This document shows, piece by piece, positions 7,562 through 43,636 of a stretch of 43,658 nucleotides of DNA. Position 1 is the stretch's first letter; the number at the start of each line of letters is the position of its first letter. The position numbers and the translations under genes were made by a program. The stretch comes from Candidatus Dojkabacteria bacterium UBA2177 (lineage in GTDB: Bacteria; Patescibacteriota; Dojkabacteria; SC72), in NCBI GenBank assembly GCA_002328805.1, contig DCVX01000032.1:1-43658 (forward strand), given 5' to 3'. The notes beneath the pieces were generated by a model that made no database searches, was not told the origin of the DNA, and saw only the letters and a program-made list of their open reading frames with translations.

Positions 7562-7564
7562 TTG

Positions 7565-8431: not shown

Positions 8432-10159
8432 TTAATTTTTTAAGAAATCTAAAATATCTTCTACAAAGAATGGTCTCCCATCATACTTCAAAAGCCTCTC
8501 TTTAAATTCATACCCAATATTTTCTTTAATATAATTACCTAATTGTCCTGCCTGGTTATTTTCAACTAAGACTAGTCTCTTATTTGCAACTATTAACTCT
8601 TCCAGTTTCTCTGTTTTAAGAGGGGAGATATATTCATAATGTAGATAGCCTATCTTCCTAGAGTCTTTCTCTATTTCAATTGCATCTAAGACGGCATTTT
8701 TTACACTCCCCCATCCTACAAAGAACAAATTAGCATTTTTATCTCCATACAGAGTTGGTTCTGGTAATTCTTTTGCTAGAATTTCTAATTTTCTTAATCT
8801 TTTATTTGTCATTGCTATTGTTTCTTCTGAGTCTTCTGTGCTAGATCCGTCTTCTGAATGTTCATCACTATTTGCTAAGTAGGGTTTCTTCTCCTTGGAG
8901 GGAATCCATCTGGGAGATATGCCAGTATCTGTTATTTGGTATCTTTGTATATCATTTTCTACCTTATCTACTAATCCTCTTTCAATTCTCTCAACTCTAG
9001 GCATCTCTTTGAAATTGAAGATTGATTCAGAGATTTGCTTTTCCATCAGGAGTATGACTGGTAATTGATAAACTTCGGCAATATTAAGAGCCTTCTGGAT
9101 GAGTGTATAAGATGATTTAGCATCGCTTGTCGCTATAACTACCCTTGGAAATTCTCCATGGCTTGCTTTAAGTGCTACATTTAGATCTGATGCACCTGTC
9201 CAAGTTGGTAGTCCTGTTGCTGCGCCAGTTCTTTGGGATAATATAACAACAAGAGGTGTTTCAGACATCCCTGCACAGGAGATAGTTTCAGACATGAGGT
9301 CAAATCCTCCTCCTGAGGTAGCTACTAGTGCACGAGTCCCCATGTACATACTTCCCATTGCCATTTGGACTGCTGTAATTTCATTCTCTGCTTGTTTAAC
9401 TAAAATCCCAGTTTCTTGGGCGTTATCCCCTAGATATTTAAATATTGAGGTTGAGGGGGTCATCGGGTAGGCATAGTAAGCTCTAACACCGGCGGAAATT
9501 GCTCCTAAACCAATTGCCTGATTGCCAGTCATTACATAACTGTTGTTATTGTTAAACAACTCTTTTTTAGGAACATCTATTTTCTTGGCATATTCTGGTC
9601 TGAATGTAGCAGAATCATAGCCGGCTCTTATACACTTTTCTTCAGCTTCAAGATCAATATTTTTATTTTCAAAGTGTTTTAGTACAACATTTACTAATGT
9701 CTCCACTTCTAACTCTAGAATTCTCCACAGGAAGCCAAGCATAACAACATTGGACATAATCTTTGTCCCTCCAGCTTCAAGAGCTATGTTCTCAGAATCA
9801 AGAAATATTGAGGAAATGTTTTTCTTTTCTATATATAGTTTCTGCTCATCTGTAAGAGTAATATCTTTTTGGTCGTAGACAATAATTCCGTTCTCTTTAA
9901 CATCTTTTAAATATTCATTTAAAGAACTAGGTGTGAAAGCAAGGAGTATGTTGCAATATTTTGAAGAAGAATTAATTTCTTTGTTTGACAAGTCTACTTG
10001 GTAAGAAGCAACACCTCCTTTTATTAAGGATGGATACTCTCTGTAGGCAAAAACTCTCTGCCCATCTCTCTTGAGTGCTCTAACAAGTAAAACCCCTATT
10101 GTGTTTATTCCTTGTCCAGATGCCCCACCAAATTTTACAGAAACTCTCTGAGTCTGCAT
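8432..10159 (-). CDS. 2-oxoacid:ferredoxin oxidoreductase, fused gamma-alpha subunit
   Basis: The N-terminal gamma-type domain reads KFGGASGQGINTIG. It is followed by an alpha/pyrimidine-binding domain (GNQAIGLGAISAGVRAYYAYPMTPST, AENEITAVQMAMGSMYMGTRA). Substrate (pyruvate versus another 2-oxoacid) cannot be told from the sequence. Confidence 0.9.
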   Translation of the reverse strand: MQTQRVSVKFGGASGQGINTIGVLLVRALKRDGQRVFAYREYPSLIKGGVASYQVDLSNKEINSSSKYCNILLAFTPSSLNEYLKDVKENGIIVYDQKDITLTDEQKLYIEKKNISSIFLDSENIALEAGGTKIMSNVVMLGFLWRILELEVETLVNVVLKHFENKNIDLEAEEKCIRAGYDSATFRPEYAKKIDVPKKELFNNNNSYVMTGNQAIGLGAISAGVRAYYAYPMTPSTSIFKYLGDNAQETGILVKQAENEITAVQMAMGSMYMGTRALVATSGGGFDLMSETISCAGMSETPLVVILSQRTGAATGLPTWTGASDLNVALKASHGEFPRVVIATSDAKSSYTLIQKALNIAEVYQLPVILLMEKQISESIFNFKEMPRVERIERGLVDKVENDIQRYQITDTGISPRWIPSKEKKPYLANSDEHSEDGSSTEDSEETIAMTNKRLRKLEILAKELPEPTLYGDKNANLFFVGWGSVKNAVLDAIEIEKDSRKIGYLHYEYISPLKTEKLEELIVANKRLVLVENNQAGQLGNYIKENIGYEFKERLLKYDGRPFFVEDILDFLKN

Positions 10160-10231
10160 GTTGTTTTAATATACTTGATGTCGTTTAATATGTAAACTCT
10201 CAACCTGATTTGATTTGAAATTCTGGTTGTT

Positions 10232-11005
10232 TTAATCAAATAATGTACTACCCCCTGTTTCTAAAACTCTCTCAATGTTCCATCTGAGATCTTCCTTCTC
10301 TGTTATATTATTAAGCATCCATTCAAGATAACCTCTATCTTCTTTTGCAATATCTGCTAATAAATGGCCAGCATATTTTCCAAAATTAATATTTCTTATA
10401 TATGCAGGTTCTTTAGATATCTGGATCATGTTCTCGATACTAAGTTTACTGTTGCTTTGTATGTACTTAAAAAGATCTCTTAAAAAGTAAACATCACTTA
10501 GTGCATCATGTGCCGTGTTATGATCTAGGTCTTCCTTCTTGTAAAGACCAAGATAGTATCTTAAATATTGTAACGAATAGCTCTCTAAATCTCTCTTCTC
10601 TTCTGTAAACATGTTCCTAGCTAATTTGAAGGTACAAATGGTTCTGGGGATTTCAAGGCCCTTTCTTTCAAGAACCTCTTTGTCAAATTCCACATTGTGA
10701 GCTACCCAGATATATTCTTTTGCAAGATATTCTAAATATTCTTTTAAGTTTTTTCCTGCGAATTCTCTCTCTTTATAGTCCTCTGGGACTTTAGAATCTT
10801 CAAATGTGGGGTAATCTGCGAGAAATTCTGGCGTTAAGTGATGAATAGCCATTGCTGTATAGCTAACTTTTTGTATGGGATTGAAAAACATATTTAAGGT
10901 AGTTCCATCTTCCTTTAAAATCGCAAGTTGAATAATATCTTTGCTCTGGATGTCAGTTGTTTCTGTGTCGAAGTATAATATTTCTTCTTTCTTATCTTTT
11001 TGCAT
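10232..11005 (-). CDS. DEDDh-type 3'-5' exonuclease (DnaQ/ExoX-like) with C-terminal FGKY..G..L......YL.W tail domain
   Basis: Exo motifs are YFDTETTD (ExoI), VAHNVEFD (ExoII) and HDALSDVYF (ExoIII, His type). The C-terminal INFGKYAGHLLADIAKEDRGYLEWML resembles the small domain found on ExoX-like and DUF3820-type proteins. Confidence 0.8.
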   Translation of the reverse strand: MQKDKKEEILYFDTETTDIQSKDIIQLAILKEDGTTLNMFFNPIQKVSYTAMAIHHLTPEFLADYPTFEDSKVPEDYKEREFAGKNLKEYLEYLAKEYIWVAHNVEFDKEVLERKGLEIPRTICTFKLARNMFTEEKRDLESYSLQYLRYYLGLYKKEDLDHNTAHDALSDVYFLRDLFKYIQSNSKLSIENMIQISKEPAYIRNINFGKYAGHLLADIAKEDRGYLEWMLNNITEKEDLRWNIERVLETGGSTLFD

Positions 11006-12034: not shown

Positions 12035-12385
12035 ATGTTTAACAAAAAGTTTTTCTTATTCCTGTTTGTTCTTCCAGTTCTCTTGACATCTTGTTCCTCT
12101 GAGAATCCTGTTCCTTGGAACAAAATTGAGGTTCTCGAGGAAACAAACCCTGAATATTTGGGATCCTATCGCTTCAAAAGATGCTGGGGTAATTCCTATG
12201 ACAGAGTTTGTGAAGAAGAATATGGGGAGTGGAGTTCTGATCTAGAACTTTTCCTCGATCAAAACAGGAAAATCTGTTTTGGAGGCTTTGAAGAAGGTAA
12301 GGTGTATGCTCGGCCTGATTATGAATGGGTTGAAACAAAACACCAAGGTCGGAATTGCATTCAATTACAGAAGAAAGGAAAATAA
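12035..12385 (+). CDS. Small Cys-containing putative lipoprotein, unknown function
   Basis: The signal peptide plus lipobox read MFNKKFFLFLFVLPVLLTSC. A good SD (AAGGAG) sits 6-7 nt upstream. The gene is followed by a long hairpin and a T-run. I recognise no family. Confidence 0.6.
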   Translation: MFNKKFFLFLFVLPVLLTSCSSENPVPWNKIEVLEETNPEYLGSYRFKRCWGNSYDRVCEEEYGEWSSDLELFLDQNRKICFGGFEEGKVYARPDYEWVETKHQGRNCIQLQKKGK

Positions 12386-14700: not shown

Positions 14701-17700
14701 ATGTCTGCCCAGAAAACTGCCAAGATGTTCAAAGTCAAGAAGAGAGATGGAAGAATAGTTGAATTCCAAAAAGAGAGATTAGCAACTGGAATATTCAAAG
14801 CTGCCGAAAGTGTTGGAGGTGAGGATAGGGAGAGAGCGAATGAGATTGCCGATGAAGTAGTTAGGAGATTAAAAGAGAAATATTCTGGTAAAGAATATGT
14901 TACCACAAAAAAAATTGCAGCTGTTACAACTCAAACCTTGATAGATATGGGTCATGGAAAGACTTCTGTAGCATTTGAATTGTTTGTAGACCTAAAGAAC
15001 CAAGTTAAGAATATCAAGTCACTTATAGATGCAGACACTCTTGTAAGCGGTTATATAGACAAGGTTGACTGGCAGGTTAATGAAAACAGTAATATGGCCT
15101 ATTCATGGCAAGGATTAAATCACTACATTTCCTCAACAGTCCAGGCCAACTACTGGTTACATAGTATATATCCCAAAGAGATTTCTAATGCGAATATAGA
15201 TAAGGATTTCCATATCCATGATTTAGGAATGTTAGCAACGTATTGTAATGGTTGGAGTTTAGAAGACTTACTTCTTAGGGGTTTTACTGGTGTAAAGGGT
15301 AAGATTTCTTGTGCTCCTCCAAAGCATTTTAGTACAGCATTGGGACAAGCTGTAAACTTTCTTTATACTCTTCAACATGAAGCTGCAGGTGCTCAAGCAT
15401 TTTCAAGTTTTGATACATATCTTGCACCCTTTATAAGATATGACAATCTTACTTACAAGCAAGTAAAGCAGAAAATGCAGGAATTCCTTTACAACATGAA
15501 TGTACCAACAAGAGTGGGGTGCCAGTGTGTGTCCGAAGACACTCAGATACTCACACCAAAAGGATGGGCAACGTACGAGGATATAAAAGAGGGTATTCTT
15601 ATAAAAACTTTTAATTTAGAAACAGGAGAAATAGAAAACCAAAAAGTCGAGTCTGTTTTTAAAGGTCAGTATAAAGGTGTTATGTACAATCTTAAAAATA
15701 GAATTCAGGATCAATTGATTTCTCCTGGGCATCGCGTAGTTAGAAAACTCTTCAATTCTGACAAATATATTTTAGAACCGATTGAGGAGGTTGCAAAATT
15801 AAAATCACCTATTGTAATTCCTATAGCAGGCGACAATACACTTAATGGTCATGTAGATCTATCAGATGAGCAGTTACGTTTAATGGCATGGATTATTAGT
15901 GAGGGTTCCATTGGGAAAAACGGGAAGCACAGGAGTTGTTATAGAGTTTCTATCTATCAGTCTAAACTAAAGAACAGAAAAAATTATGATGAAATTAAAA
16001 ATTTGTTAAATCATTTTGGTTTTAAATATTCAGAGACTGAAAAATCGGGACTAGGAGAACCTGTCGTAAGATTTAGAATAAATGCAGAAGGTTCAAAAAC
16101 TATTCACAAATGGTTTGGGAGTAAAGAAAATGTTAAGAGCATACCAAAAGATATTCTTAATTTAAATCTGGAAAAGTCTAGATTGTTTTTGAATACATAT
16201 ATCAAGGGCGATGGTCATGAAAGTTGTAAGATTTCTACAACTAGTTTAGAGATATTAAATGCCCTGCAAATTGTAGCTGTAAATGCTGGATATGGTTTTA
16301 CTGTTCTTACAAGAAAACCAACTTTAGGGAAAAAGAAAATATATGTTCTGCGATTAATTAAACATAAAAACACCTATATACAAGAGATTACAAAAGTTAA
16401 ATATGATGGAGTAATCTGGTGTCCACATACAAAAAATGAAACTATAATTGCAAAAAGAAATGGTAAGGTCTTTATTACAGGAAATACACCTTTTACAAAT
16501 ATAACTATGGATCTTGTTCCTAGTGGTCAATTAGCTGAACAGGGAGTAATTATTGGTGGGGAAATACAGAAAGAGAAATATAAAGATTTTGAAAAAGAAA
16601 TGGCTATGCTTAATAGAGCCTTCTGTGAAATTATGATGGAAGGAGATGCTCAAGGAAGACTATTCTCTTGGCCAATTCCTACATACAATATAACTAAAAA
16701 TTTTGATTGGAATAATCCTAAATACAAGCCTGTGTGGGAGATGACTGCAAAGTATGGTATTCCCTACTTCTCCAATTTCATGAATTCAGATATGAACCCA
16801 GATGATGCTAGGAGCATGTGCCTTCATCCCGAAGAAGAAATCGTTTACAAAGAAGGAGGAAATATAAAGAGAGGAAATATTGGTGATTTAGTAGAAAGTC
16901 ATAGAGGTGGAGAATATGATAAAGACGGTTGGGCAAAGATAAAAAAGAATGAAGGGTTAGAAGCATTGTCATTGGATTTAGAAAGTGGAAAAACAGAATG
17001 GGTTCCTATTATAAGATTTTTAAGGATTGAAGATGATGAACTTGTTAAATTGACCTTAGAGGATGGAAAAGAAATTAGGGTGTCTTCAAAGCATCTAATT
17101 CCTGTGTTAACCAAGGAGGGCTTTAAAAACAAAATGGCAAAAGATGTTGATAAAAATGACTACCTTCTTAACCTTAAACAAACAGATCAATTTAATACTA
17201 AGTATCAAAAAATTTCCAAAGATATAATTTTAGATGAGAGTGTAGCAAAGATTCTTGGCTATTTTGTTGCTGATGGTAATTATCTGAAAGAGAGTAGAAA
17301 AAACATGAAGCTGTGTGGAGAACCAAAAGGTTTACAGTTTACATTTAATTCAAAAACAAAGGAAAACTTAAAAGAGATTAAAAAGCTATTAAAAGATTGT
17401 TTTAATGTTTCTACTAAAGAAAAACAAGATCCTAGATACAACACCTACTACCTTTATGTCTATGATTCTATGATGGCACGAACATTAAAAGAAGCAGGGT
17501 TTGAAAAGTATGGAAGATTACCAAACATACTTTTTAATTCCCCAAAGACAGTCATAGAAGCTTTCTTGGATTACCACTTTAAGGGAGATGGTTATGAAAA
17601 AAGAGAAGAGGTTCATATAAATGATTTGGAACTAGCAAGAGACCTTACTCTTCTGTATTCCTTAATTGGAAAACCAGTAACATATAAAGAGAGAGGGAAT

Positions 17701-18939
17701 AGTCAAAGGATATATGTACAGCATCAAAAGAATGAGATTGCCAAGGATGGTAAATTAGCAGGACCAACAATAGCGAATCGTGTCCCAGGCTTTCTTGCTA
17801 AGTCTACATATCTGGTACCTGGTCTAAACAAGAGCAGAATGGTTGGTTTTGCTGCTTTAGAGAAATACAAAGCGCAAACTAAGGAAAGTAAATATATTCA
17901 AGATTCAGATTTTTACGTAGTTAGAGTTAAAGAAATATCTAAAAAGAAATTAGATAAAAAAATCTCTTTCTTTGACATTGAACTGGCTAAAAATCATCTC
18001 TTTGTCCATTCATTGGGAACTATTACCCATAATTGTTGCCGACTCAGAATCGACAACAGAGAACTTAAGAAAAGAGGTGGTGGCCTCTTTGGAGCCAATC
18101 CTCTTACAGGTAGTATTGGTGTTGTTACAATTAATCTTCCTCGTATAGGTTACTTGAGTAAAGATAAGGAAGAATATTTCAAGAGACTAGATGAACTTAT
18201 GGATTTGGCTAAGAAGAGTCTTGTTATTAAGAGAAAGTTTATTGAGAGATATATAAATGCTGGGTTATATCCATACTCACGCTTCTATTTAGACAATATC
18301 AAGAAGAGGTTTAAGGAATATTATAAGAACCACTTTAATACTATTGGAATACTTGGAATGAATGAGTCTATGATTAATTTCTTCAAAGACAAGGAGAAAG
18401 GAATTGCCTCAAAAGAAGGAAGAGAATTTGCCTTGGAGATTATGGATCATATGAGAGAAAGGTTAAAGGAGTATCAGAAAGAAACTAACAGTTTGTTTAA
18501 TTTAGAAGCTACCCCTGGAGAAAGTACTACTTATAAGTTTGCAAAAGCAGACAGAAAAAAGTTTGGTAAAGATATAATTACTGCTGCGGAAATTGGTGCA
18601 CAGAAATCTAAGACCCCATACTACACAAACAGTACTCATCTACCAGTTGGTTACACAGATGACATTTTTGAAGCTTTAGATTTGCAGGATGAATTCCAAA
18701 CTAAATATACAGGAGGAACAGTTGTACACCTCTTCCTCGGAGAGAAGATGCCAACTGGAGAATCTGTCAAAAACTTGGTAAGAAAGGTTTGTGAGAATTA
18801 TTCTCTACCCTACTTCTCCATAACTCCGACTTTCAGTGTCTGTCCCAATCATGGTTATATTTCTGGAGAGCATGAGTTTTGCCCATCATGTGACCAAGAA
18901 GCTGGCTATGAAGAAGGAATGCCTTTTTATGAGAAATAA
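14701..18939 (+). CDS. nrdD: Anaerobic (class III) ribonucleoside-triphosphate reductase large chain, precursor with two inteins; ORF lacks the glycyl-radical loop
   Basis: The N-terminal ATP-cone reads FKVKKRDGRIVEFQKERL. Extein motifs are NVPTRVGCQ/TPFTNITMD, RSM/CCRLRIDNRELKKRGGGLFGANPLTGSIGVVTINLPRIG and YYTNSTHLPV. The C-terminal Zn site is CPNH...CPSC. After removing inteins of 320 and 405 aa, 687 aa remain. Confidence 0.93.
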   Translation: MSAQKTAKMFKVKKRDGRIVEFQKERLATGIFKAAESVGGEDRERANEIADEVVRRLKEKYSGKEYVTTKKIAAVTTQTLIDMGHGKTSVAFELFVDLKNQVKNIKSLIDADTLVSGYIDKVDWQVNENSNMAYSWQGLNHYISSTVQANYWLHSIYPKEISNANIDKDFHIHDLGMLATYCNGWSLEDLLLRGFTGVKGKISCAPPKHFSTALGQAVNFLYTLQHEAAGAQAFSSFDTYLAPFIRYDNLTYKQVKQKMQEFLYNMNVPTRVGCQCVSEDTQILTPKGWATYEDIKEGILIKTFNLETGEIENQKVESVFKGQYKGVMYNLKNRIQDQLISPGHRVVRKLFNSDKYILEPIEEVAKLKSPIVIPIAGDNTLNGHVDLSDEQLRLMAWIISEGSIGKNGKHRSCYRVSIYQSKLKNRKNYDEIKNLLNHFGFKYSETEKSGLGEPVVRFRINAEGSKTIHKWFGSKENVKSIPKDILNLNLEKSRLFLNTYIKGDGHESCKISTTSLEILNALQIVAVNAGYGFTVLTRKPTLGKKKIYVLRLIKHKNTYIQEITKVKYDGVIWCPHTKNETIIAKRNGKVFITGNTPFTNITMDLVPSGQLAEQGVIIGGEIQKEKYKDFEKEMAMLNRAFCEIMMEGDAQGRLFSWPIPTYNITKNFDWNNPKYKPVWEMTAKYGIPYFSNFMNSDMNPDDARSMCLHPEEEIVYKEGGNIKRGNIGDLVESHRGGEYDKDGWAKIKKNEGLEALSLDLESGKTEWVPIIRFLRIEDDELVKLTLEDGKEIRVSSKHLIPVLTKEGFKNKMAKDVDKNDYLLNLKQTDQFNTKYQKISKDIILDESVAKILGYFVADGNYLKESRKNMKLCGEPKGLQFTFNSKTKENLKEIKKLLKDCFNVSTKEKQDPRYNTYYLYVYDSMMARTLKEAGFEKYGRLPNILFNSPKTVIEAFLDYHFKGDGYEKREEVHINDLELARDLTLLYSLIGKPVTYKERGNSQRIYVQHQKNEIAKDGKLAGPTIANRVPGFLAKSTYLVPGLNKSRMVGFAALEKYKAQTKESKYIQDSDFYVVRVKEISKKKLDKKISFFDIELAKNHLFVHSLGTITHNCCRLRIDNRELKKRGGGLFGANPLTGSIGVVTINLPRIGYLSKDKEEYFKRLDELMDLAKKSLVIKRKFIERYINAGLYPYSRFYLDNIKKRFKEYYKNHFNTIGILGMNESMINFFKDKEKGIASKEGREFALEIMDHMRERLKEYQKETNSLFNLEATPGESTTYKFAKADRKKFGKDIITAAEIGAQKSKTPYYTNSTHLPVGYTDDIFEALDLQDEFQTKYTGGTVVHLFLGEKMPTGESVKNLVRKVCENYSLPYFSITPTFSVCPNHGYISGEHEFCPSCDQEAGYEEGMPFYEK
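15526..16485 (+). mobile_element. Intein 1 in NrdD (320 aa) with LAGLIDADG homing-endonuclease domain
   Basis: It begins CVSEDTQILTPKGW (block A) and has ISPGHRV (block B). The LAGLIDADG motifs are LRLMAWIISEGS and LFLNTYIKGDGHE. The end is ...WCPHTKNETIIAKRNGKVFITGN followed by +1 Thr. Excision restores RVGCQ-TPFTNIT, the conserved NrdD sequence. Confidence 0.85.
16819..18033 (+). mobile_element. Intein 2 in NrdD (405 aa) with LAGLIDADG homing-endonuclease domain
   Basis: It begins CLHPEEEIVY and has block B VSSKHLIPV. The LAGLIDADG motifs are KILGYFVADGNY and AFLDYHFKGDGYE. The end is FFDIELAKNHLFVHSLGTITHN followed by +1 Cys. Excision restores DDARSM-CCRLRID. Confidence 0.9.
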
Positions 18940-19107: not shown

Positions 19108-19803
19108 ATGCTCAAGATTACTGGTTTAGAAAGGTCTTCCCTTTTGGATTATCCGGGGAAGATCTCCGCAATAATATTTACTCATGGTTGTAATCTAAGG
19201 TGTCCTTACTGTCACAATCCTGAGTTGGTTATAGAAGGATTTAACAAAAGTGAAAGTTTTAGTGAAGATGATGTTTTAACCTTTTTAGAATCTCGAAAAG
19301 GAAAACTAGATGCTTTAGTGATAACTGGAGGAGAGCCTTTAGTGCAGAGGGATCTGCTTCCGTTCATAAAGAAAGTTAAAGATATGGGTTTCTTGGTAAA
19401 GCTAGATACTAACGGAACATTCCCAGACAAGCTAAAGGATTTTATCGAGACTGGCCTTATAGATTATATTGCTATGGATGTTAAGTATCCCAAGGTTGGA
19501 TATGTTAAGAACTCTATGATTCCTGGTGTAGCTAGGAAGATAGAGAAATCTATTAAGATAATCATGGATTCAGAATTAGATTATGAATTTAGAACTACCT
19601 ATGTTAAACCATTACATTCCTTTGAATCGGCTGAAGAGATTGGGAAAATGATTAAAGGAGCGAAAAATTACTACATACAGAATTTTAGACCAGGTAAGAC
19701 TATAGAACCTACTTTGACTAAAGAAAACTCATTCACAACTAAAGAGCTGGGAGAAATTAAAAAGACCATAGAAAAGTATGTAGAGAATGTTCAAATTAGA
19801 TAG
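19108..19803 (+). CDS. nrdG: Anaerobic ribonucleotide reductase activating protein (radical SAM)
   Basis: The radical SAM cluster motif is GCNLRCPYCHNPE (CxxxCxxC), with the SAM motif ITGGEPL. The ATG at 19108 has GAGGGA about 8 nt upstream and is preferred over the track's GTG at 19093. Confidence 0.9.
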   Translation: MLKITGLERSSLLDYPGKISAIIFTHGCNLRCPYCHNPELVIEGFNKSESFSEDDVLTFLESRKGKLDALVITGGEPLVQRDLLPFIKKVKDMGFLVKLDTNGTFPDKLKDFIETGLIDYIAMDVKYPKVGYVKNSMIPGVARKIEKSIKIIMDSELDYEFRTTYVKPLHSFESAEEIGKMIKGAKNYYIQNFRPGKTIEPTLTKENSFTTKELGEIKKTIEKYVENVQIR

Positions 19804-20443
19804 GATTTTCTAGAACTTTTATAACCTTCCCATTAAACATAACATCTGTGTCTTTATCCAGAAAGATTGGCTGATTAAGAGGATTAGTAGATTCTGGGTA
19901 AAGAGTTATCATGCCATCTCCCTTCTTAAATCTTTTAACAGTTGCACTATTCTCTATAATAGCGACTACAACATCTCCATCTTTAATTTCTGCATTTTTC
20001 TGAACTATTAGGTAACTTCCCTCCTCTATATTTTTACCTTCTACCTCTGCCAGATCCATAGAGTCGCCTTTAACAATTAGGGCAAAAAGGTCATTCTTCT
20101 TTTTTACTAACTTAGGATCTATCTTAATATGACCTAAGTTTTCCTCCTCTGCACTAACAAGCGGAGTTCCCGCATTGGCATACCCCAAGATAGGTACTCC
20201 AATTAGGTAGTCGTATACTATCTCCTCATCATTATCTACGATATGTATACCCCTTGGGTCTCCCGTCCTAATGATATACCCCTTCTTCTCTAAAGCAATT
20301 AAGTGGTTAACAACTCCTCTTTTTGTAGATATTCCTAAAAACTCCTGTAACTCACCCAAAGATGGAGCTTGTCCATTTTCTAGGTAGCACTGTCTTATTA
20401 TTCTAAGTACTTTCTCTTGCTTCTTTGTAAGTATACCTCCCAT
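19796..20443 (-). CDS. lexA: LexA repressor (S24 self-cleaving)
   Basis: The N-terminal winged HTH reads LTKKQEKVLRIIRQCYLENGQAPSLGELQEFLGISTKRGVVNHLIALEKKGYI. The C-terminal peptidase S24 has VKGDSM (Ser) and TVKRF (Lys). Confidence 0.9.
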   Translation of the reverse strand: MGGILTKKQEKVLRIIRQCYLENGQAPSLGELQEFLGISTKRGVVNHLIALEKKGYIIRTGDPRGIHIVDNDEEIVYDYLIGVPILGYANAGTPLVSAEEENLGHIKIDPKLVKKKNDLFALIVKGDSMDLAEVEGKNIEEGSYLIVQKNAEIKDGDVVVAIIENSATVKRFKKGDGMITLYPESTNPLNQPIFLDKDTDVMFNGKVIKVLENPI

Positions 20444-20605
20444 CTTCTCTCTGTGATTTATAATTTAATAAGACAGTATACCCCTACGCTCAAAAGGTAT
20501 ACAAGTACCTATAGAGATAATTTGAAAAAAATCTCTCTTGCATAAAGTTATCTTTAATATTATACTGTAATTGTATATATTAATTTAAAATCTCTATTTA
20601 TTATT

Positions 20606-21007: not shown

Positions 21008-21034
21008 AGATATTATGATAAAATTCATAAGCTT

Positions 21035-21108
21035 CGGGGAGTAGTTCAGATGGCTAGAACGCTGCGTTTGGGACGCAGAGGCCGCAGGTTCAAGTCCTGT
21101 CTCCCCGA
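21035..21108 (+). tRNA. tRNA-Pro (anticodon UGG)
   Basis: It folds by hand into a cloverleaf. The acceptor is CGGGGAG/CTCCCCG plus discriminator A. The anticodon stem is CTGCG/CGCAG with loop TTTGGGA (TGG at 21069-21071). The T-arm is GCAGG-TTCAAGT-CCTGT. No CCA is encoded. Confidence 0.92.
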
Positions 21109-21139
21109 TTCGTTTCATCAGTTAATCACGTGTGAAGTT

Positions 21140-24100
21140 TTAGTTCCCTCTTCTTATGCTCATTATTTTGTCGATGTCTAAATGTGGTTTGGCTTTCTCT
21201 CCTACTACAGTACTGGCAGATATCCTTTGTTCAGTATCACCTGGTATTGGCCAATTATATTCAAGGTTCCCTTCTCCAAGTGCTCTTAATCGCATTATCG
21301 GTTGTGCTCTTAGTGTAACTGTGTCACCCTTATGAATTTGATTTAGATCTGCCAAATTCTTAAAAAGCCTCATCGTTTTAACATTCCCTCTCTTATCCCT
21401 AACCATTAAATTACAATATTCGTCTCCATCATTCTTCACACCATTAGACCTACTCACAACCGTTAAATCTTCAAACTCAATCATTAACCCTGGCATATTA
21501 ACACCATATGGGTTAGTTTGCTTATACATGCTTGCAGCAATAGTGTCCGCAACATCAAAAGTGTTTACATACTCTCTGTAATCACCTAGATATCCCCATC
21601 CTTCCTCTTCTAAGCTCTGTGCTGTTCTCTCTATAACCTCTTCCACTTTAACAATTCCTGCGTCTGGATTCTCTATCTCATACTTTAAGAATATTGGGTC
21701 CAGAACCTCATGCAACTTCTCTTTTCCTCCCTTAACTTCCCACGTTCCTCCTGCAGCTTCTGGATGCCCACCATGTGCCAGTATTTTTATTCCTGGGATT
21801 TCGTTTATTGCCAACCCTAACTGAACCATATCTGCAGCAACGTTTCCCTTAGCTGGTAATCTGAAAGATACACTGTATCTTCCTGCAGTACCATTTGTTT
21901 CTGCTTTCTCCTCAACTATAACCATCGTTGGCTTTTCATACCTACCTGCAAGCTGACCCGCTATTAAACCTCTAAGACCCTTTGTGGGATCTACATACTT
22001 TCGTCCTTCAAGTTTAGTTATTATTATTGGTTTTTCCAATTCACCATGGTTATTATCTAAATCCTTAGCTATCTGTTCAAAAAGTTCCTCTCTTCTCTCG
22101 ATAGAAACCTCCTGAGCATAAACAAGTGTATGTCTATGTCTCCTTGTAGTCTCATTGTCACTTCTACGAATACAAAAATCTGCAGCTTCTGTCCAGAACT
22201 CCTTGGCTCTCTCAGACCTTTCCTCTTTCCCTCTTCTATACATAGCATTAACAAATGCAGAAACTCCATGGGTGAGTAATCTAGACAGATGCCAATTAAC
22301 AGACTTAATATGCGTCCCTCTTAGAGACGTCCTAATAAGTCGTAAGATTTCGGGCTGTATGCGTTTCAATTCACTCTTTTCTTGTCCAGTTGCTTCCCAA
22401 TAATCATCTGTGAATTTCTCTATTGCATTCATTCCGTTTCTTACAATTGCTCTGTTCTCTCTCCCCTTCCCTAAATCAACAGAGCCTCCGTCTCCTAGTG
22501 TTGCTGTAGCTTCTGTTAAATTAATAAATTCAAACCCATATGGACCATATTTAAAGAAGGAATCAACAGCTCTCATCTCCATAGGTGTAAGCCTCTTCCT
22601 CTTTTGTAATCTCTCTATTACTTCATTCCAAATTTTGTTTCCTTCATATCTAACCTTTGTTCTCTTATCTGGGACTTCTCCTGTTCTTGGGTTCTCTGGA
22701 ATACCACCATTTTCGTCATACCCTTGCTCAATTAGGTCGAACAGATGAATCTTTAAGTCTCTCAAGTTTAGAATCTTGTCAGGATTGTCGTCAGGGAGTA
22801 ATGCTCTTTGAACGATATCTGTTAAATTTATAGAGAAACTACCGTCTATTGCCTCAATCTCGGCAGTCCTATCTATTTCAGTAGATAATTTAAATAGTGT
22901 TGGTAAAATATATTCTTCCTTTTCATCTTTTGGCAAAAGGAAGAACGATTTGGGAAGTCTTTTTGCATAATCTAAGTAAAAGCGAAGTTCTCCTTTACTA
23001 AGAATATCACTCTCTGTAACTTCTTCTATTCTTCTTTTGTAAAGAGTGTCTATTTTGTCGATGGTCCGATTACTTACGGAATCTTTATCTAGAGAAAAAC
23101 TTTCTTCCTTTATATAGCTGAGAAAATCTTCCTTGTTGTTTATAACTAGCCCCCATTTTGCCTCTAGTTCTTTTAGTAGTGTGATGCTCTCCTCTTGGCT
23201 TAAACCGTTCTGTTTTATTCTAGTTACATAATGTCCAAGGGAGCTGACAGATTGGTTAATCCTGGAGGTTATCTTGTCCATCGGGGCCTTCTCCATCCAG
23301 AGTCCTTCTAAAGATAACTCTATATCCGTATCCTCGTCTAGCATTATATGTATCTCTGTTGGCAGAGGTAAATCCTCTGTGCTCTCCTTTGAACCTTTAG
23401 ATACAATTTGAGCAAGCTCTCTATATTTATTCTTGCGTGCTTCAGCATCAAGAGAATAAATTTCTGTTGCTTCTTCTCTGACAATCTCCTCATCTGTTAA
23501 TAGTTGGAGAAACCTTTTAATTACTTTCCCCGTCGTTACTGTGCCTACTATGTCTGATTCTGGGTAACAAGTATATTTTCTTTGTACCTTGTTAATCTCT
23601 TCGATATTGACCTCTCCCTTATCATTTGGTTTTAGGGCTAGTTTCATCTCCTCAATAAATTTCTCTTCGTAGCCATTGCGAACCCATTCGGGATTAACCA
23701 TTATTACATCCTCATTATCTCTGAAGTATTCAATAGCCTCTATTGAAGGTGTATGGTGATCACATACAATTATTTTCAAATCAGGGAATCCTTCTAGGAA
23801 GTAAACTAATGGAGCATAATCACTAAGTGATTTGTATTCAGGTTTTTTGTTGTTAGAATCATCGATATATGTCTTCCCAGTTGTAAACCTTGTTTCAAGG
23901 AGCTCTGTTAAGTCTAAATCTTTGTCATCCTTATGTTCGTTAATAAACCTTGTTAACTTTGTTTTAATTTGTCTCTGTACGTGCTTTGTCAAACTGCTAA
24001 AACCTTGTATCCCTTCTATGTTTTCTCTAAAGAATAGAAGGTCCTCTATAGATTGGACACCGTTCTTAATTAATGAAAAGGTTTTGGTATCTTGTTCACT

Positions 24101-26194
24101 AGAGCCTGTGTCGTTAATAATTATAAGATCACTCCCTTTAAGAGCAAGGTTTAATAAGTCTCTAGGCTGAACAGCATGGCCTTCTAGTCTAGTGTTAAAT
24201 TTCTGTTCTACATCATCTACACCTACGTGTTCCAGTATCCATCTCCAGTTTATTGATGCAAAGAAACCATCTTGGTCACAGTCTCCTATGGTTGCAATCT
24301 TATTATTGCTGACCACCGTTCTGTATACTATTTTTGCAGCCTTATCTACATTCTGCAACGCACTAGGAGGCTCTTCTGCATTTTCATTTGGGAACATTGC
24401 CTCTAACATTTCTTTTTTGTTCTCAACTCCTAAGGATTTATAATATTCATTAAGCATATTATTTGCTATTAGACCTTCTAAAACCTCCACATAACGAAGG
24501 TCTCCGTAAACCCTATCTGAGAGATATTTATTTTGCTCAAGTTGCTCTTCTGTAAAATCACTTCTTCTAGGAGGAGACCCTGTAGGAAAAATTCTTTCAA
24601 AGACAGGCTCCTGTAAGACATCTAGGAGCATTCTGATTTCGAGTCCCTTGTCGTCATATGGGTTTACTAAAACATCACTAATTAATTCTAGATCCAACCT
24701 GTATCTCCACGCAGGTCTAACATTTCTTATCTTTGTTGGAACTGCTATGTCAATTAGTATTTCATCATCTAGAGCATCCTGTAATGAAAGAATAGCTTTA
24801 TATTCTTCTTCATTCATGTCATGCAGATAAAGAGCCTTATGTCCTGATTCGAGTCTTTTTATAAGCATTAATATTGTTTGGAACTCTTCTTTACTTATAT
24901 GTTCTAAACCACTTCGAGGTGTTTTTCCTATTCTTCTGAGACTGTCTAATGATGTTTTAAGCCTATTAACTGCAGAATCTCTGTCGAGAAGTTCAACAAC
25001 TAGTTCGAGTTTTTCAATCGCGATGGATTCATCAAATGTTAAGACCTCTTTCGCTTCTGTATCTTCTTCATCTTTTTCTGCTCTTTCAAGAGTTCCTCGT
25101 GTTTTGCTCATCCTCTCTGCCAGTGAGACTAGGCTTTCTATATCTTCTTCTGAGAGAATATCTAAATGATTGTTCTGGTCTAGAAGGATTGTCTTGTTTA
25201 TTATTGCTCTGGCATCTATACAAATCTCTTTTCTCTTCTCTAGGATATACTTAGTAGAAAGGCTTGGAGATAATGGTATGGAACCTCTAAGAAGCTCTGC
25301 AGCTTGAGAGTTTATCTGGTAAGCAAAAAATGTTAGTTCTATCATTTTGTCTAGTGCTTCCTCATCTTCTGTTGCACCAAGTTCTTTCTCTGCTAACAAT
25401 ATTGACAATGCCTCTGCGGAATCATTTGCAACAAGAGAATGTTCAAACCAGTGCGAAGATATGGCCACAGGTCTCTGTGACAAACCTCCCTGCGAAGATG
25501 GAACGATATGCTGGTCATGTTTATTTATATAGGTAGGACCACTTGAGTTTATCTTTTCTACTCTTTGGTGATGAAGAATTAGATCATCTAGATCTATCTC
25601 TAATATGTCTGCATATTTCCGAGCAAGTTTTACATCTATCTCCTCAGAATCTAATTTGCCCTCTCCGACCCATTCTTCTTCTGTGATCCACTCTTCGTTT
25701 GTTGCAAGCTGTGTCCCCTTTGCAAGAAGACTAAGTGCTTCAATTATTGAACACCCTGAGGTAACAAGATATTTAACAACTTCCTGCTGTATCGCTTTCC
25801 TGTATCCTGGGCGATTAAGTCCCTCTTCTCTATTCTCTCTTTGTGATGAAGAAACAATGGTCTTTAAGACGACCTTTGGTTCAAAAAGGTCTCCTTTGTC
25901 TAGTGTTCTAGCTCTCTTCTTTTGAGATTCCTTAGATTCATACTCTGTAACTTCTTCTTGTCCAAATACATATCTTCCCTGTTCAGCTAATTCTTCTGTA
26001 GTTAATAGAATATCTGAGAATTTTCTTCCTGTGGAAGTTATCTTGTTATCAAAAATCTCATCCTTGAGAGTTCTAAGACGCATTTCCATTGTCGGATCTT
26101 CGAGAGTTGCTTCAAACCAATTCTCGTATCTTGGAGAGAATTCTGCCTTATCTATATTTACTTGACTCAAGTTTCTTTCTTCTTGCTTATTCAT
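21140..26194 (-). CDS. Giant RecJ-like DHH/DHHA1 phosphoesterase (putative ssDNA exonuclease) with very large insertions
   Basis: 1684 aa. RecJ motifs occur in the canonical order: IATIGDCDQDG (aa 633-643), DLIIINDTGSS (aa 689-699), IIVCDHHTP (aa 808-816) and ATLGDGGSVDLGKGRENRAIVRNGMNAI (aa 1231-1258). They continue with GLRGLIAGQLAGRYEKPTMVI (aa 1406-1426), GRYSVSFR, AHGGHPEAAGG (aa 1473-1483) and NPYGVNMPGLMIEF (aa 1561-1574), then an OB-like C-terminus. I cannot assign aa 1-630 or about 820-1230. Confidence 0.8.
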   Translation of the reverse strand: MNKQEERNLSQVNIDKAEFSPRYENWFEATLEDPTMEMRLRTLKDEIFDNKITSTGRKFSDILLTTEELAEQGRYVFGQEEVTEYESKESQKKRARTLDKGDLFEPKVVLKTIVSSSQRENREEGLNRPGYRKAIQQEVVKYLVTSGCSIIEALSLLAKGTQLATNEEWITEEEWVGEGKLDSEEIDVKLARKYADILEIDLDDLILHHQRVEKINSSGPTYINKHDQHIVPSSQGGLSQRPVAISSHWFEHSLVANDSAEALSILLAEKELGATEDEEALDKMIELTFFAYQINSQAAELLRGSIPLSPSLSTKYILEKRKEICIDARAIINKTILLDQNNHLDILSEEDIESLVSLAERMSKTRGTLERAEKDEEDTEAKEVLTFDESIAIEKLELVVELLDRDSAVNRLKTSLDSLRRIGKTPRSGLEHISKEEFQTILMLIKRLESGHKALYLHDMNEEEYKAILSLQDALDDEILIDIAVPTKIRNVRPAWRYRLDLELISDVLVNPYDDKGLEIRMLLDVLQEPVFERIFPTGSPPRRSDFTEEQLEQNKYLSDRVYGDLRYVEVLEGLIANNMLNEYYKSLGVENKKEMLEAMFPNENAEEPPSALQNVDKAAKIVYRTVVSNNKIATIGDCDQDGFFASINWRWILEHVGVDDVEQKFNTRLEGHAVQPRDLLNLALKGSDLIIINDTGSSEQDTKTFSLIKNGVQSIEDLLFFRENIEGIQGFSSLTKHVQRQIKTKLTRFINEHKDDKDLDLTELLETRFTTGKTYIDDSNNKKPEYKSLSDYAPLVYFLEGFPDLKIIVCDHHTPSIEAIEYFRDNEDVIMVNPEWVRNGYEEKFIEEMKLALKPNDKGEVNIEEINKVQRKYTCYPESDIVGTVTTGKVIKRFLQLLTDEEIVREEATEIYSLDAEARKNKYRELAQIVSKGSKESTEDLPLPTEIHIMLDEDTDIELSLEGLWMEKAPMDKITSRINQSVSSLGHYVTRIKQNGLSQEESITLLKELEAKWGLVINNKEDFLSYIKEESFSLDKDSVSNRTIDKIDTLYKRRIEEVTESDILSKGELRFYLDYAKRLPKSFFLLPKDEKEEYILPTLFKLSTEIDRTAEIEAIDGSFSINLTDIVQRALLPDDNPDKILNLRDLKIHLFDLIEQGYDENGGIPENPRTGEVPDKRTKVRYEGNKIWNEVIERLQKRKRLTPMEMRAVDSFFKYGPYGFEFINLTEATATLGDGGSVDLGKGRENRAIVRNGMNAIEKFTDDYWEATGQEKSELKRIQPEILRLIRTSLRGTHIKSVNWHLSRLLTHGVSAFVNAMYRRGKEERSERAKEFWTEAADFCIRRSDNETTRRHRHTLVYAQEVSIERREELFEQIAKDLDNNHGELEKPIIITKLEGRKYVDPTKGLRGLIAGQLAGRYEKPTMVIVEEKAETNGTAGRYSVSFRLPAKGNVAADMVQLGLAINEIPGIKILAHGGHPEAAGGTWEVKGGKEKLHEVLDPIFLKYEIENPDAGIVKVEEVIERTAQSLEEEGWGYLGDYREYVNTFDVADTIAASMYKQTNPYGVNMPGLMIEFEDLTVVSRSNGVKNDGDEYCNLMVRDKRGNVKTMRLFKNLADLNQIHKGDTVTLRAQPIMRLRALGEGNLEYNWPIPGDTEQRISASTVVGEKAKPHLDIDKIMSIRRGN

Positions 26195-26220: not shown

Positions 26221-26246
26221 TAAAAAGAGGGTGCTTTTTGCACCCT
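26221..26246 (-). terminator. Intrinsic-terminator-like hairpin in the leader of the giant gene (function uncertain)
   Basis: The minus strand reads AGGGTGC-AAAAA-GCACCCT followed by CTTTTTA. The element ends 27 nt upstream of the ATG at 26194. Confidence 0.45.
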
Positions 26247-26532
26247 ACGGAATTCAAGACTTATTCAATTTTATGCAGGCTCTAATTTTTTCTAGCACTA
26301 TACTTCTTTTCTAATGTTATAAATTCTTCTACTGTAAACTACTCTAGGTCTGAATCCAGAATACTCGTTAAAAATTTATACTGTCAAGAAATTTAAAGAG
26401 TCTTATTCTACGGTTAATTTTTATGTATAAAATATCTCCAAAATTTTGAGAGCGGAAGTTACATTTGTAAAAAATTGCAAAGAAAGTAAAAAGGATTTAG
26501 AATGGTGATAATAAATTTATTCTTTTAATTTT

Positions 26533-36222: not shown

Positions 36223-36555
36223 TTATCTTCTACCGAGCTTTCTCTCTTGAGATGCTATCCAGTCATCTACCGCTTTATCAATACTCTCTCCCTTCTTAAG
36301 ACCTAATTCTGCTCTCACTTGGGACTCACTTCTTTTTCTTGCTCTTTTGACCTCATCTGGTTCTGGGAGCGTCTCTTTGTAATGAAGTTCATCACAAATT
36401 GTCTGCGTTGACCGTATTTCGCCTGTGGGAGTCTCACTAGCACCATCCATAGTGGTAGAGAGTACTCTAACAGCCTCTTCTCCCGAATAGCCTTCATCTA
36501 GAAGCTCTTGTATTTCACCTGGATCATATTTGGGAACATTGCTCTCTAAGGGCAT
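36223..36555 (-). CDS. Hypothetical 110-aa protein
   Basis: It lies co-directional with tRNA-Gln and 68 nt downstream of it. I recognise no motif. By eye the region looks less AT-rich than its surroundings. Confidence 0.45.
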   Translation of the reverse strand: MPLESNVPKYDPGEIQELLDEGYSGEEAVRVLSTTMDGASETPTGEIRSTQTICDELHYKETLPEPDEVKRARKRSESQVRAELGLKKGESIDKAVDDWIASQERKLGRR

Positions 36556-36765: not shown

Positions 36766-37896
36766 ATGCCCCTCTTTAAGAAAAAGCCAGAGAAAACTAA
36801 AAACAAAAGACAGAGAACAAAGGGAACCACCAATCCTACGGGGAAAGTGTATATGCCCCAAAATAAAACAAATTCCGTAAGAAGGAAAGGAAAGAAGAGA
36901 TTTACTCTTTTCAAAAAACGAAGTAACAAATCCAATGTTCAAAGAAGAAATAAAAAAAACATTTCTAAAATTCTTTTTTACACCTTCCTAGCTTTATTAT
37001 TTGTAGGATTACTCTACATTTCTATTATTTCCATAATAAGAATGAGAGATAATACTACAGACGAAAATATTCCAGTGGAATACGTAGTAGGTCTAGAAGG
37101 TATCCCTTCTTACCCTGGGTCTGAATTTATATTCAAAAATAACATTGATGAAATATCTGTTGCTAATTTCATCGCCTCCGGAAATTCTGCTTACCGCTTA
37201 CCACTTAGAACAACAACTACACAAGCATATAAATATTACCAGGAAGTTCTTCCAGAACTTGGTTGGGAGAATGTTCTTTCCGTAGAGGTTGGATCAGAAG
37301 AGATGAAAGAGGGAGAATACTGGGTCAAGGGTACAAGTGGGCTTAGAATTTATTCTAAGTTCAATGATTTATGGTATGAGACACTAACTCAAGAAGAGGC
37401 TGTTACAGGTCTTAGAGCAAAGGTTGTTGAAGAGGCTGAAAGAGAGTTGCTTTTAGCAAGCCAAGATTACCAAGAACTTCTCCCCGACTTTCCATGGATA
37501 TTAAAGGTTCCTAAAGAATATATTATCTCTTATAGCTCTTCTGCTTACAAAGATTACCGAACTGTTCAATTTAGAAAAATTGGAACATCAGAAAGTGTAA
37601 GTGTCGTCCCAATAGGACCAACTGGTGATATTCTAGATAATTATCTCCAGGAGTATACAGAGTTACTTGGTGCGAATGAAGAACAGAACTGGACCATAGC
37701 CAATACAATCCTTGCAGTAACTTCTTATGGTACAGCACTAAGGGGTACTATAACAAACGGGCCAGAAAATCATGATGTTGCAGTAGTATCCAATAGTTAC
37801 AATGGTGTTGTTTATGTTATGGATGCTAACACTCCCAAAGACCCCTTCTTAGACTACCTGTTTGAGAATATGGAACCTGCAAATGTCCAGAGATAG
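36766..37896 (+). CDS. Hypothetical single-pass membrane protein with extremely basic N-terminal tail
   Basis: The first ~68 residues are Lys/Arg-rich (MPLFKKKPEKTKNKRQRTKG...RRKGKKRFTLFKKRSNKSNVQRRNKKN). They are followed by the TM helix ILFYTFLALLFVGLLYISIISII and a ~280-aa external domain. I recognise no family. Confidence 0.62.
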   Translation: MPLFKKKPEKTKNKRQRTKGTTNPTGKVYMPQNKTNSVRRKGKKRFTLFKKRSNKSNVQRRNKKNISKILFYTFLALLFVGLLYISIISIIRMRDNTTDENIPVEYVVGLEGIPSYPGSEFIFKNNIDEISVANFIASGNSAYRLPLRTTTTQAYKYYQEVLPELGWENVLSVEVGSEEMKEGEYWVKGTSGLRIYSKFNDLWYETLTQEEAVTGLRAKVVEEAERELLLASQDYQELLPDFPWILKVPKEYIISYSSSAYKDYRTVQFRKIGTSESVSVVPIGPTGDILDNYLQEYTELLGANEEQNWTIANTILAVTSYGTALRGTITNGPENHDVAVVSNSYNGVVYVMDANTPKDPFLDYLFENMEPANVQR

Positions 37897-42916: not shown

Positions 42917-43636
42917 ATGCCAGAAACTGACCAAGAAAAGTCAAATCTTTCTCTAACAAGTAGAATTAAAGACTCCAATATTACTAGAGTCACAGGAGTT
43001 TTACTCCTTGTTTTGGCCTACTACTTCATCCTTTCTCCATATATAGAGACATTCTTAACAAAAGCCTTTGGTGGTGTGGCTAGAAATACTTCTAATGTGG
43101 AGGTTAACTCTCTCTCTCCAATATTTGACATACATGTTTATGCTGGTGAATATAATCTCTCTTCTATTAAAAATACCAATGAGCCTATTAGAAAAACTAG
43201 ATTCTTTACTCTTGATCCTAGGGTATTAGCTATGAACAAGTTTTTGAGTGATTACCACTCTCCTATGGCTCCATATGCGGAGGTCTTCATCATAGAGGCT
43301 GATAGATATGGTCTAGATTGGAGACTTGTAGCATCCATCTCTGGTGTGGAATCTGCTTTTGGAAATCTCTTGCCAAAAGGTTCTCATAACGCTTGGGGGT
43401 GGAGAGGAATAAATAGGAATGATGCTGGTTGGAGTATGTTTGAGGATTGGGAGGAGTCAATCACCCATGTTACAGAACGACTTGCCTTAGGATATGGCAC
43501 CGACTTAACTCCTTTTGACATCCAAGACACATATTGTCCTCCTTGTGGAGAAACAGGGCTGGATCTTTGGGCTCATGGTGTCACCCGCTTTATGAATGAG
43601 TTAGAATATTATGTAGATAATTTAGAAAACCTCTAA
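42917..43636 (+). CDS. Membrane-anchored hypothetical protein with MltB/SLT_2-like lytic transglycosylase motif
   Basis: It has an N-terminal TM helix (VTGVLLLVLAYYFILSPYI). YGLDWRLVASISGVESAFGN resembles the catalytic ..GxES.FG motif of MltB-type lytic transglycosylases. The functional call is weak. Confidence 0.5.
   Translation: MPETDQEKSNLSLTSRIKDSNITRVTGVLLLVLAYYFILSPYIETFLTKAFGGVARNTSNVEVNSLSPIFDIHVYAGEYNLSSIKNTNEPIRKTRFFTLDPRVLAMNKFLSDYHSPMAPYAEVFIIEADRYGLDWRLVASISGVESAFGNLLPKGSHNAWGWRGINRNDAGWSMFEDWEESITHVTERLALGYGTDLTPFDIQDTYCPPCGETGLDLWAHGVTRFMNELEYYVDNLENL

Follow-up and report, generated by a model that had tools for sequence, protein, structure and literature searches.

A giant RecJ-like protein of Candidatus Dojkabacteria with a probably intact nuclease core and large lineage-restricted modules

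We analyzed a stretch of 43,658 nucleotides (nt), hereafter the window, from Candidatus Dojkabacteria bacterium UBA2177 (assembly GCA_002328805.1, contig DCVX01000032.1), and in particular the gene for a giant RecJ-like protein that lies near its middle. The window is a low-GC (35.5%) segment of a bacterial chromosome with ordinary housekeeping and DNA-maintenance genes. It encodes GlmS together with its ribozyme, CTP synthase, pyruvate:ferredoxin oxidoreductase, NrdR, NrdD, NrdG and two tRNAs, as well as LexA, MutL, UvrB, UvrC, DnaE and an ExoX-like nuclease, and this chromosomal DNA-maintenance setting was counted in favor of a RecJ reading. The gene in question occupies positions 21140..26194 of the minus strand (stop codon included) as a single, uninterrupted ATG-to-stop open reading frame (ORF) of 1684 amino acids (aa), with a predicted mass of 193 kDa and a pI of 5.05. 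An initial annotation, made from the sequence alone, had already recognized the uninterrupted ORF at this place without naming its strand; the plus-strand reading of the same interval was rejected, since it contains many stops. No second recJ of normal size was found within the 43.7-kb window.

RecJ is normally a compact enzyme of about 600 aa and depends on partners, for example SSB and RecQ; to our knowledge no other 5' exonuclease acts in the RecF recombination pathway. The NCBIfam model TIGR00644 (recJ) matched the whole protein with an E value of 6e-19 (67.7 bits), and PHROG 2484, "RecJ-like ssDNA exonuclease", matched it with an E value of 1.5e-25. When a profile of 14 homologues was aligned with Escherichia coli RecJ by hhalign, aa 579-700 corresponded to E. 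coli residues 24-142 with a probability of 93.6%. This N-terminal part of the DHH domain was alone significant when segments were aligned one by one with the single E. coli sequence, and the segments with motif III, the linker and the DHHA1/OB region reached probabilities of 10% or less. A core was then spliced in silico by joining aa 575-705, 800-840, 874-905 and 1210-1684. With the inserts removed, the TIGR00644 score rose from 67.7 to 97.1 bits, still short of the equivalog cut-off of 396.9 bits, and the best-matching stretch now ran unbroken along profile positions 3-234, reaching from the N-terminus of RecJ to motif IV inclusive; removal of the segment called insert B below lengthened the match. 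Both the rise in score and the contiguous match are what a canonical DHH domain broken up by foreign segments would give. In the PDB, the first matches of a spliced-core profile built from eight family members were the bacterial RecJ structures 8y30, 1ir6, 5f54 and 2zxo (E values from 2e-4 to 1.4e-3). Only bacterial RecJ structures were reached at E <= 0.0014, and the phosphodiesterase TM1595 was a marginal match (E = 0.5). The alignment with 8y30 consisted of four collinear stretches, corresponding to motifs I-III, motif IV, the GGH motif and the PFG start of the OB region. Sequence searches of the PDB with the whole protein, the whole-family profile or the C-terminal 484 aa found nothing significant, so that the spliced-core profile alone reached RecJ structures. 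With the archaeal model NF053576 (RecJ_archaeal) the score was 33.9 bits, for a cut-off of 360, and lower than with the bacterial RecJ model. Among 16 family members scanned with Pfam at E <= 10, DHH was found in 14, DHHA1 in all 16 (best E 1.4e-7) and RecJ_OB in two, and no other family appeared.

The seven RecJ motifs lie in the protein in their canonical order, as the initial annotation had proposed, and they could be located and aligned in 22 family members, with an order and most spacings equal to those of E. coli RecJ. They are GDCDQDG (aa 637-643), INDTG (693-697), DHH (812-814), GDGGSV...ENR (1234-1248), a motif V equivalent assigned by eye (AFVNAMYRRG vs. PRLNAAGRL in E. coli), RYSVSFR (1439-1445) and GGHPEAAG (1475-1482), followed by NPYG at aa 1561-1564. 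The roles of individual residues were taken from the Deinococcus radiodurans RecJ structures, where D79, D81, D83, D135, H159 and D223 are the metal ligands, and R109, R280, S371 and R373 form the pocket for the 5' phosphate (PMC4846377). The equivalent ligands are D638, D640, D642, D695, H813 and D1235, and R669, S1443 and R1445 correspond to three of the pocket residues; R1320 was matched to R280 by its spacing from a conserved Asn only, and is thus less certain. All of these ligands and pocket residues are invariant in the 22 members, down to 28% identity, so that a proper alignment, on which the catalytic residues might have turned out not to be conserved, preserved them instead. We consider it very likely that the protein is a highly divergent bacterial RecJ-type DHH/DHHA1 nuclease, a member of the RecJ family with an intact active site, and judged from its sequence the core should be active as a nuclease. 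RecJ identity as such is not new, because database pipelines already label the protein as a DHH-superfamily exonuclease.

The extra sequence was mapped by comparing the spacing of motifs with that in E. coli RecJ. RecJ homology begins at about aa 579 (E. coli residue 24). Accordingly, of the 637 residues that precede motif I (78 in E. coli), about 55 belong to the normal RecJ N-terminal region. The N-terminal extension thus covers aa 1-578 (24461..26194; this and all following parts of the gene lie on the minus strand), its end being set by the hhalign start of RecJ. It is acidic, predicted to be all-helical, and restricted to the family. The core starts with aa 579-712 (24059..24460), which take in the RecJ N-terminal region together with the beginning of the DHH domain and carry motif I (D638, D640, D642), Arg669, His673 and motif II (D695), and which align with E. 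coli RecJ 24-142, with TIGR00644 positions 3-126 and with PDB entries 8y30, 1ir6, 5f54 and 2zxo. Motifs I and II are 56 residues apart (57 in E. coli), so about nothing is added there. Between motifs II and III, however, 117 residues stand against 23. The surplus of 94 defines insert A (about aa 713-805; 23780..24058), which measures 88-145 aa in all members. The DHH strand that follows, placed by alignment and spacing (aa 806-837; 23684..23779), carries motif III (D812, H813, H814) and the NPEW element, at a distance of 23 residues vs. 17 between motif III and NPxW (+6). Insert B (about aa 838-876; 23567..23683) separates NPEW from the post-motif-III helix (48 residues vs. 13, +35) and is conserved in all members. 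That canonical DHH helix (aa 877-900; 23495..23566), YPESDIVGTVTTGKVIKRF as compared with FPSKSLAGVGVAFYLML in E. coli, was identified by alignment, splicing and spacing. Just before the motif IV strand lies insert C (aa 901-1215; 22550..23494), delimited by spacing (350 residues from helix to motif IV vs. 44, +306). Within it, aa 931-1063 (23006..23404) form an optional sub-module, since exactly this segment is missing in a subclade of 1512-1572-aa members.

Beyond insert C the protein is largely canonical. The end of the DHH domain and the linker (aa 1216-1390; 22025..22549) contain motif IV (D1235...ENR), the motif V equivalent (N1316, R1320) and a long linker. This part is about 40 aa longer than in E. 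coli (82 residues vs. 57 from motif IV to V, +25, and 92 vs. 77 from motif V to DHHA1, +15), and it holds the most conserved region of the whole protein (mean column identity 0.92 at aa 1281-1320). The DHHA1 domain (aa 1391-1510; 21665..22024) has motif VI (S1443, R1445) and motif VII (GGH, 1475-1477), and was recognized by Pfam in 16 of 16 members and by TIGR00644 positions 339-405. From DHHA1 onward the intervals are extended by 3, 6, 24 and 35 residues. The C-terminal tail (aa 1511-1684; 21143..21664), which begins with NPYG, is probably a RecJ OB fold; a 25-residue collinear match, NPYG...LEFEDL, to the PFG region of the RecJ chain 8y30 gives this assignment weak support. In total, about 1,000-1,100 aa are extra, more than half of them N-terminal. 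Some of the sizes first given by the initial annotation have to be revised on this map. Its acidic, helical N-terminal extension stands, at about 555-578 aa rather than 630, some 50-75 shorter; its insertion of about 110 aa between motifs II and III is real and amounts to about 94 extra residues. Its interval of about 415 aa between DHH and motif IV (about 421 by our count) holds about 347 residues more than the 74 in E. coli, split into the 35-40 aa of insert B and the 306-315 aa of insert C. In contrast, the roughly 145 extra residues that it had placed before DHHA1 are mostly canonical linker with motif V (174 residues from motif IV to DHHA1 vs. 134 in E. coli), and its description of DHH and DHHA1 motifs more than 1000 aa apart was too loose, as DHH and GGH are separated by 664 aa.

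None of the extra segments resembled a known family, in agreement with the first reading that they could not be recognized: Pfam, NCBIfam, PHROGs, PADLOC, the PDB, Foldseek against the PDB and BFVD, and a full HMMER scan covering 1.84 billion representatives were consulted. In that scan the N-terminal region had seven matches, all of them giant RecJ-like proteins or fragments, and the PADLOC defence-system models matched the giant protein with 0 families at E <= 1. The N-terminal region (aa 1-578) has a net charge of -39 and a pI of 4.8. Its AlphaFold2 (AF2) model was all-helical with a mean predicted local distance difference test (pLDDT) score of 62, and contained a confident helical block at aa ~314-500. 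Neither Foldseek on the PDB nor a PDB profile search found a match for it; given the poor model, the Foldseek result carries little weight. Several strongly conserved segments of this region fall where pLDDT is below 50 (aa 73-130, 213-248, 499-509 and 538-583), and they may be interfaces with the rest of the protein. All 22 members share 36 invariant N-terminal residues, among them His229, His248 and His252 as well as N216, G237, Q240, P242 and several Arg. Insert C was modeled with much better scores (pLDDT 85.3, predicted template modeling score 0.67), as 13 helices of at least four residues with three small beta-hairpins, in which aa 931-1063 are a hairpin with four helices. Judged from this model, insert C is an autonomous, mostly helical domain without a known fold. 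Its best Foldseek matches had E values of 0.66 in the PDB (template modeling score 0.16) and 0.81 in BFVD, no GAN, RecJ or Cdc45 chain was matched, and a PDB profile search found nothing. For insert A, Pfam scans gave no family match. The idea of an internal duplication, in which the N-terminal region would be related to insert C, was rejected (hhalign probability 1.6%).

The taxonomic distribution of this architecture was then considered. We found 19 protein clusters with it, 17 of them full length (1660-1712 aa, 48-100% identity); one is named Candidatus Dojkabacteria and several carry the JGI annotation "single-stranded DNA-specific DHH superfamily exonuclease". A family-profile search for further homologous proteins yielded no new members; with insert C alone as query the same kind of search brought back nothing, even missing the known members, which points to its word filter. 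The gene is present in genomes of 12 GTDB species labeled as Dojkabacteria or generically as Candidate Phyla Radiation (CPR), with one exception labeled "Methanobacteriota", and the homologues belong to Candidatus Dojkabacteria (WS6, CPR), in line with the initial guess of Patescibacteria. In the exceptional contig (L010, JAMNZA010000075.1), assigned to a "Methanobacteriota archaeon" bin, the copy is 44% identical and the GC content, 33.5%, is like that of Dojkabacteria loci; probably this is CPR sequence placed in the wrong bin. The N-terminal region and inserts A, B and C are present in every member of the 22-member alignment, and the distant members P0022 (1834 aa) and L012 (1757 aa), with 28-29% identity, retain every module. 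An identical homologue of 1682 aa occurs on contigs of JGI, ENA and Logan assemblies with the same neighbors. The neighbors shared among genomes are NrdDG, LexA, LemA and DUF2207. On a 748-kb Dojkabacteria contig (JBMNHB010000001.1, 748,838 bp; locus L008, gene at 5995-10713) the gene order around the giant recJ is kept, with NrdD/NrdG/LexA/DUF4870 on one side and LemA/DUF2207/FemAB/DegT on the other, and the gene alone is inverted relative to the window. At its 3' end in the window lies tRNA-Pro (21034-21109), and on that side in L008 a 325-aa ORF. In another contig (L017, JAXGKM010000019.1) the giant recJ is called as six fragments (315, 426, 368, 99, 182 and 75 aa), and NrdD, LexA and MutL are truncated too. 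This assembly looks riddled with frameshifts and is the source of spurious short database "families". A candidate stand-alone N-terminal protein (P0021, 315 aa) was therefore rejected, as it sits on a contig with many broken genes, the giant recJ included.

Selection on the modules was estimated from the ratio of nonsynonymous to synonymous substitution rates (dN/dS) against the closest genome (L002), for which dS is about 1.2 and thus near saturation. The ratio was 0.046 for the N-terminal region, 0.057 for insert A and 0.090 for insert C, as compared with 0.02-0.03 for the core segments. The extra modules are under strong purifying selection. The conservation across genomes, the three assemblies and the low dN/dS together exclude misassembly, a pseudogene and a recent fusion; the identical homologue in three independent assemblies in particular disposes of the chimeric misassembly that the initial annotation had envisaged. 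Its argument that the extra mass is functional holds to the extent that this mass is conserved, with dN/dS of 0.05-0.09, an architecture kept to 28% identity and three assemblies in agreement.

Upstream of the gene we found a sigma-70-like promoter, TTGACA-N18-TATTCT (26358..26387, minus strand), whose hexamers do not vary among five loci with protein identities as low as 61%. A terminator-like hairpin, GGGTGC-AAAAA-GCACCC with a T-run (26228..26246, minus strand), lies in the ~165-nt 5' leader about 30 nt before the ATG. Both elements are kept in the five loci, and in one of them (L006) the stem sequence differs with pairing retained. The hairpin may be an attenuator of the giant recJ gene. 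An Rfam scan of the leader RNA gave no family at E <= 1, and the overall fold stability of the leader was not above that of shuffled sequences. The promoter region upstream of lexA (19796-20443, minus strand) contains AGGTA-N6-TACCT (20495-20510), a perfect palindrome that by its sequence and place is a candidate for the LexA operator of the lineage. The window holds no second good copy, and matches with up to two mismatches were not enriched over shuffles. Control of the giant recJ by the SOS response was rejected, as a palindrome of the lexA type has no copy upstream of the gene.

Several further observations concern other genes of the window. A glmS ribozyme (Rfam RF00234, 61.9 bits) at 1942-2080 of the minus strand lies directly upstream of glmS (119-1909, minus strand), the usual arrangement, here in a CPR genome. 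NrdD (14701-18939, plus strand, 1412 aa) is split by an intein with a LAGLIDADG homing-endonuclease domain at aa ~725-1111, and NrdD of the related locus L008 (21..2654) has 877 aa and no intein. Five ORFs of 110-376 aa (2070-2876, 12035-12385, 36223-36555, 36766-37896 and 42917-43636) had no Pfam match at E <= 0.001.

Compared with typical bacterial RecJ (E. coli, 577 aa; Thermus thermophilus, 1ir6/2zxo; D. radiodurans, 5f54; model TIGR00644), the giant protein shares the seven motifs in the same order, the metal ligands, the 5'-phosphate pocket, the spacing of motifs I and II, the RecJ N-terminal region, the linker with motif V, DHHA1 and the PYG start of a probable OB fold. In contrast, it is three times larger, outside the ~550-760 aa of such enzymes, with an N-terminal region of ~578 aa and three inserts that split the DHH domain, and the residues that stack on the +1 base, Tyr/Phe80 and Tyr114, are replaced by Cys and His. 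It has no C-terminal domain of the Deinococcus-Thermus type, and only ~35 aa more than E. coli RecJ after the PYG element. In D. radiodurans and T. thermophilus that extra domain binds SSB-Ct and HerA (PMC4846377, PMC4663267), and so provides a precedent for a lineage-specific partner-docking domain, although it is small, C-terminal and unrelated to the additions described here. In archaeal RecJ, the CID, an alpha/beta domain within DHH, lowers substrate affinity until GINS acts; the CID of Pyrococcus furiosus RecJ regulates nuclease activity and mediates stimulation by a partner, and in Cdc45 another insert follows motif III (PMC5716160). These proteins (archaeal RecJ/GAN and Cdc45), in which an autonomous alpha/beta domain interrupts the DHH domain, offer the best functional analogy for insert C. 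Nevertheless, insert C has no sequence similarity to the CID, and no similarity of fold by Foldseek against a PDB library that holds those structures. Moreover, the core of the giant protein is of the bacterial type with a probable OB tail, its catalytic residues are intact unlike those of Cdc45, and it has three inserts together with a large N-terminal region. Phosphoesterases of the NrnA/GdpP/Pde type share the catalytic motifs of DHH and DHHA1 with it, and differ in having no RecJ N-terminal region, no long motif V linker and no OB tail.

Taken together, we read the protein as a lineage-specific giant RecJ, a 5'-to-3' single-stranded DNA exonuclease of Dojkabacteria with an intact core and added modules that would gate, regulate or dock, and we give this reading a probability of roughly 60%. 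The core, with DHH, linker, DHHA1 and a probable OB tail, is complete and would act as a canonical RecJ, with two-metal-ion hydrolysis where DHH and DHHA1 meet and a pocket that takes up the 5' phosphate. In DHH proteins there are five parallel strands whose C-terminal ends bear the metal ligands, and strand 4 terminates in DHH (PMC4846377). Because inserts A and C immediately precede the strands leading into motif III and motif IV, they would sit along the sheet's N-terminal edge, on the side away from the active site. Such a position would explain how ~400 aa are tolerated inside a catalytic domain. Insert B follows motif III; it would lie on the catalytic side and could touch the path of the DNA. 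The modules would gate or regulate access of DNA and/or dock partner proteins or duplex DNA, and one polypeptide would hold functions that other bacteria supply by separate proteins. For this role of the modules, drawn by analogy, our confidence is tentative at most. A bolder proposal is that the extra residues, those of insert C at least and probably also some of the N-terminal region, which holds His229, His248 and His252, form undescribed folds that make RecJ a self-contained machine for DNA-end processing. They would let it handle duplexes or separate strands, give it a second catalytic or metal site, or build regulation into it, and so make up for partner proteins absent from the reduced Dojkabacteria genomes. 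We regard this proposal as unlikely.

A number of results weigh against reading the protein as a regulated giant RecJ. The Pfam DHH and DHHA1 matches of the window protein are weak and under the gathering scores, and its TIGR00644 score is far under the equivalog cut-off. For the OB region, the RecJ_OB matches in two of 16 members are weak (E = 0.004). No LexA-type operator was found upstream of the gene. The geometry of the inserts is deduced from the published DHH topology, and the gating or scaffold role is drawn from an archaeal and eukaryotic CID that insert C does not resemble. In D. radiodurans RecJ, Tyr80 and Tyr114 sandwich the +1 nucleotide, and Tyr114 clashes with a ribose and so discriminates against it (PMC4846377); here the corresponding residues, without variation in the family, are Cys639 and His673, and the substrate preference may differ as a result. 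A changed substrate specificity is for this reason the most serious rival. The protein would then be a DHH/DHHA1 phosphoesterase for which the name RecJ is misleading, acting on RNA, nanoRNA or 3'-phosphoadenosine 5'-phosphate (pAp) as NrnA does, or on both DNA and RNA as archaeal RecJ does. The low score relative to the RecJ cut-off and weak matches to archaeal RecJ models (E = 1.5e-8) agree with it as well. However, the best NCBIfam, PHROGs and PDB matches are all bacterial RecJ, the RecJ-specific N-terminal region (E. coli 24-77) is present, the residues of the 5'-phosphate pocket are conserved, and the PYG start of a probable OB region follows DHHA1, parts which NrnA- and GdpP-type enzymes do not have. 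On balance we hold another substrate to be unlikely.

Could the N-terminal region, alone or with insert C, be a second catalytic or metal site, for example for strand separation or for a second nuclease or hydrolase step? The three invariant histidines, with N216, G237, Q240, P242 and several Arg, would fit such a bifunctional enzyme; a dN/dS of 0.046 is as low as in many enzymes, and AF2 alone cannot place the conserved segments. Nevertheless, the region has no similarity to an enzyme family by sequence or fold, it is all-helical without a recognizable nucleotide-binding motif, and contacts with the RecJ core would account just as well for its conserved segments of low confidence, so that we find bifunctionality rather improbable. 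The large DHH inserts and the acidic region also recall Cdc45 (PMC5716160), and a non-catalytic scaffold of a replication or repair complex, with nuclease activity lost, could be imagined. Cdc45 has lost three metal ligands and the pocket residues (PMC4846377), whereas all six ligands and the pocket residues are invariant in the 22 members here, which makes this scaffold very improbable. Finally, the extra segments might be inteins or other mobile insertions, or the ORF an artifact of assembly or fusion, a thought suggested by the intein with a LAGLIDADG domain in the neighboring nrdD. Yet no Hint, intein or homing-endonuclease signal was found in any of the 16 members scanned with Pfam at E <= 10, by a method that does detect the NrdD intein, and an intein or mobile-element origin of the inserts was rejected on this ground. 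The inserts stand at the same sites in all members under purifying selection, the identical protein was recovered in three independent assemblies, and the short "N-terminal-only" proteins are frameshift fragments of a poor assembly; an origin of this kind is hardly credible.

The preferred reading, a giant RecJ nuclease of Dojkabacteria, thus describes what is by its sequence a known and catalytically orthodox family, in a form confined to one lineage. In literature on RecJ in Dojkabacteria, Patescibacteria, CPR and WS6, on RecJ insertions and extensions and on recombination in Dojkabacteria, we found no earlier description of this architecture. Its size is unprecedented for a RecJ, with about 1,000 aa of lineage-restricted, constrained sequence that include at least one confidently predicted domain without a known fold. 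The protein indicates that large new domains can be taken up within the catalytic fold of a core repair enzyme while the active site stays intact and the modules stay constrained, and it would parallel, independently in bacteria, how archaeal RecJ gained its CID and became Cdc45. The roughly 20 sequence clusters are a defined set in which new folds and new modes of nuclease regulation may be sought. That 5 kb is spent on one repair nuclease in an otherwise minimal CPR genome suggests that the modules replace missing partners, and if they do, the giant RecJ would inform how recombination works in these uncultured CPR organisms.

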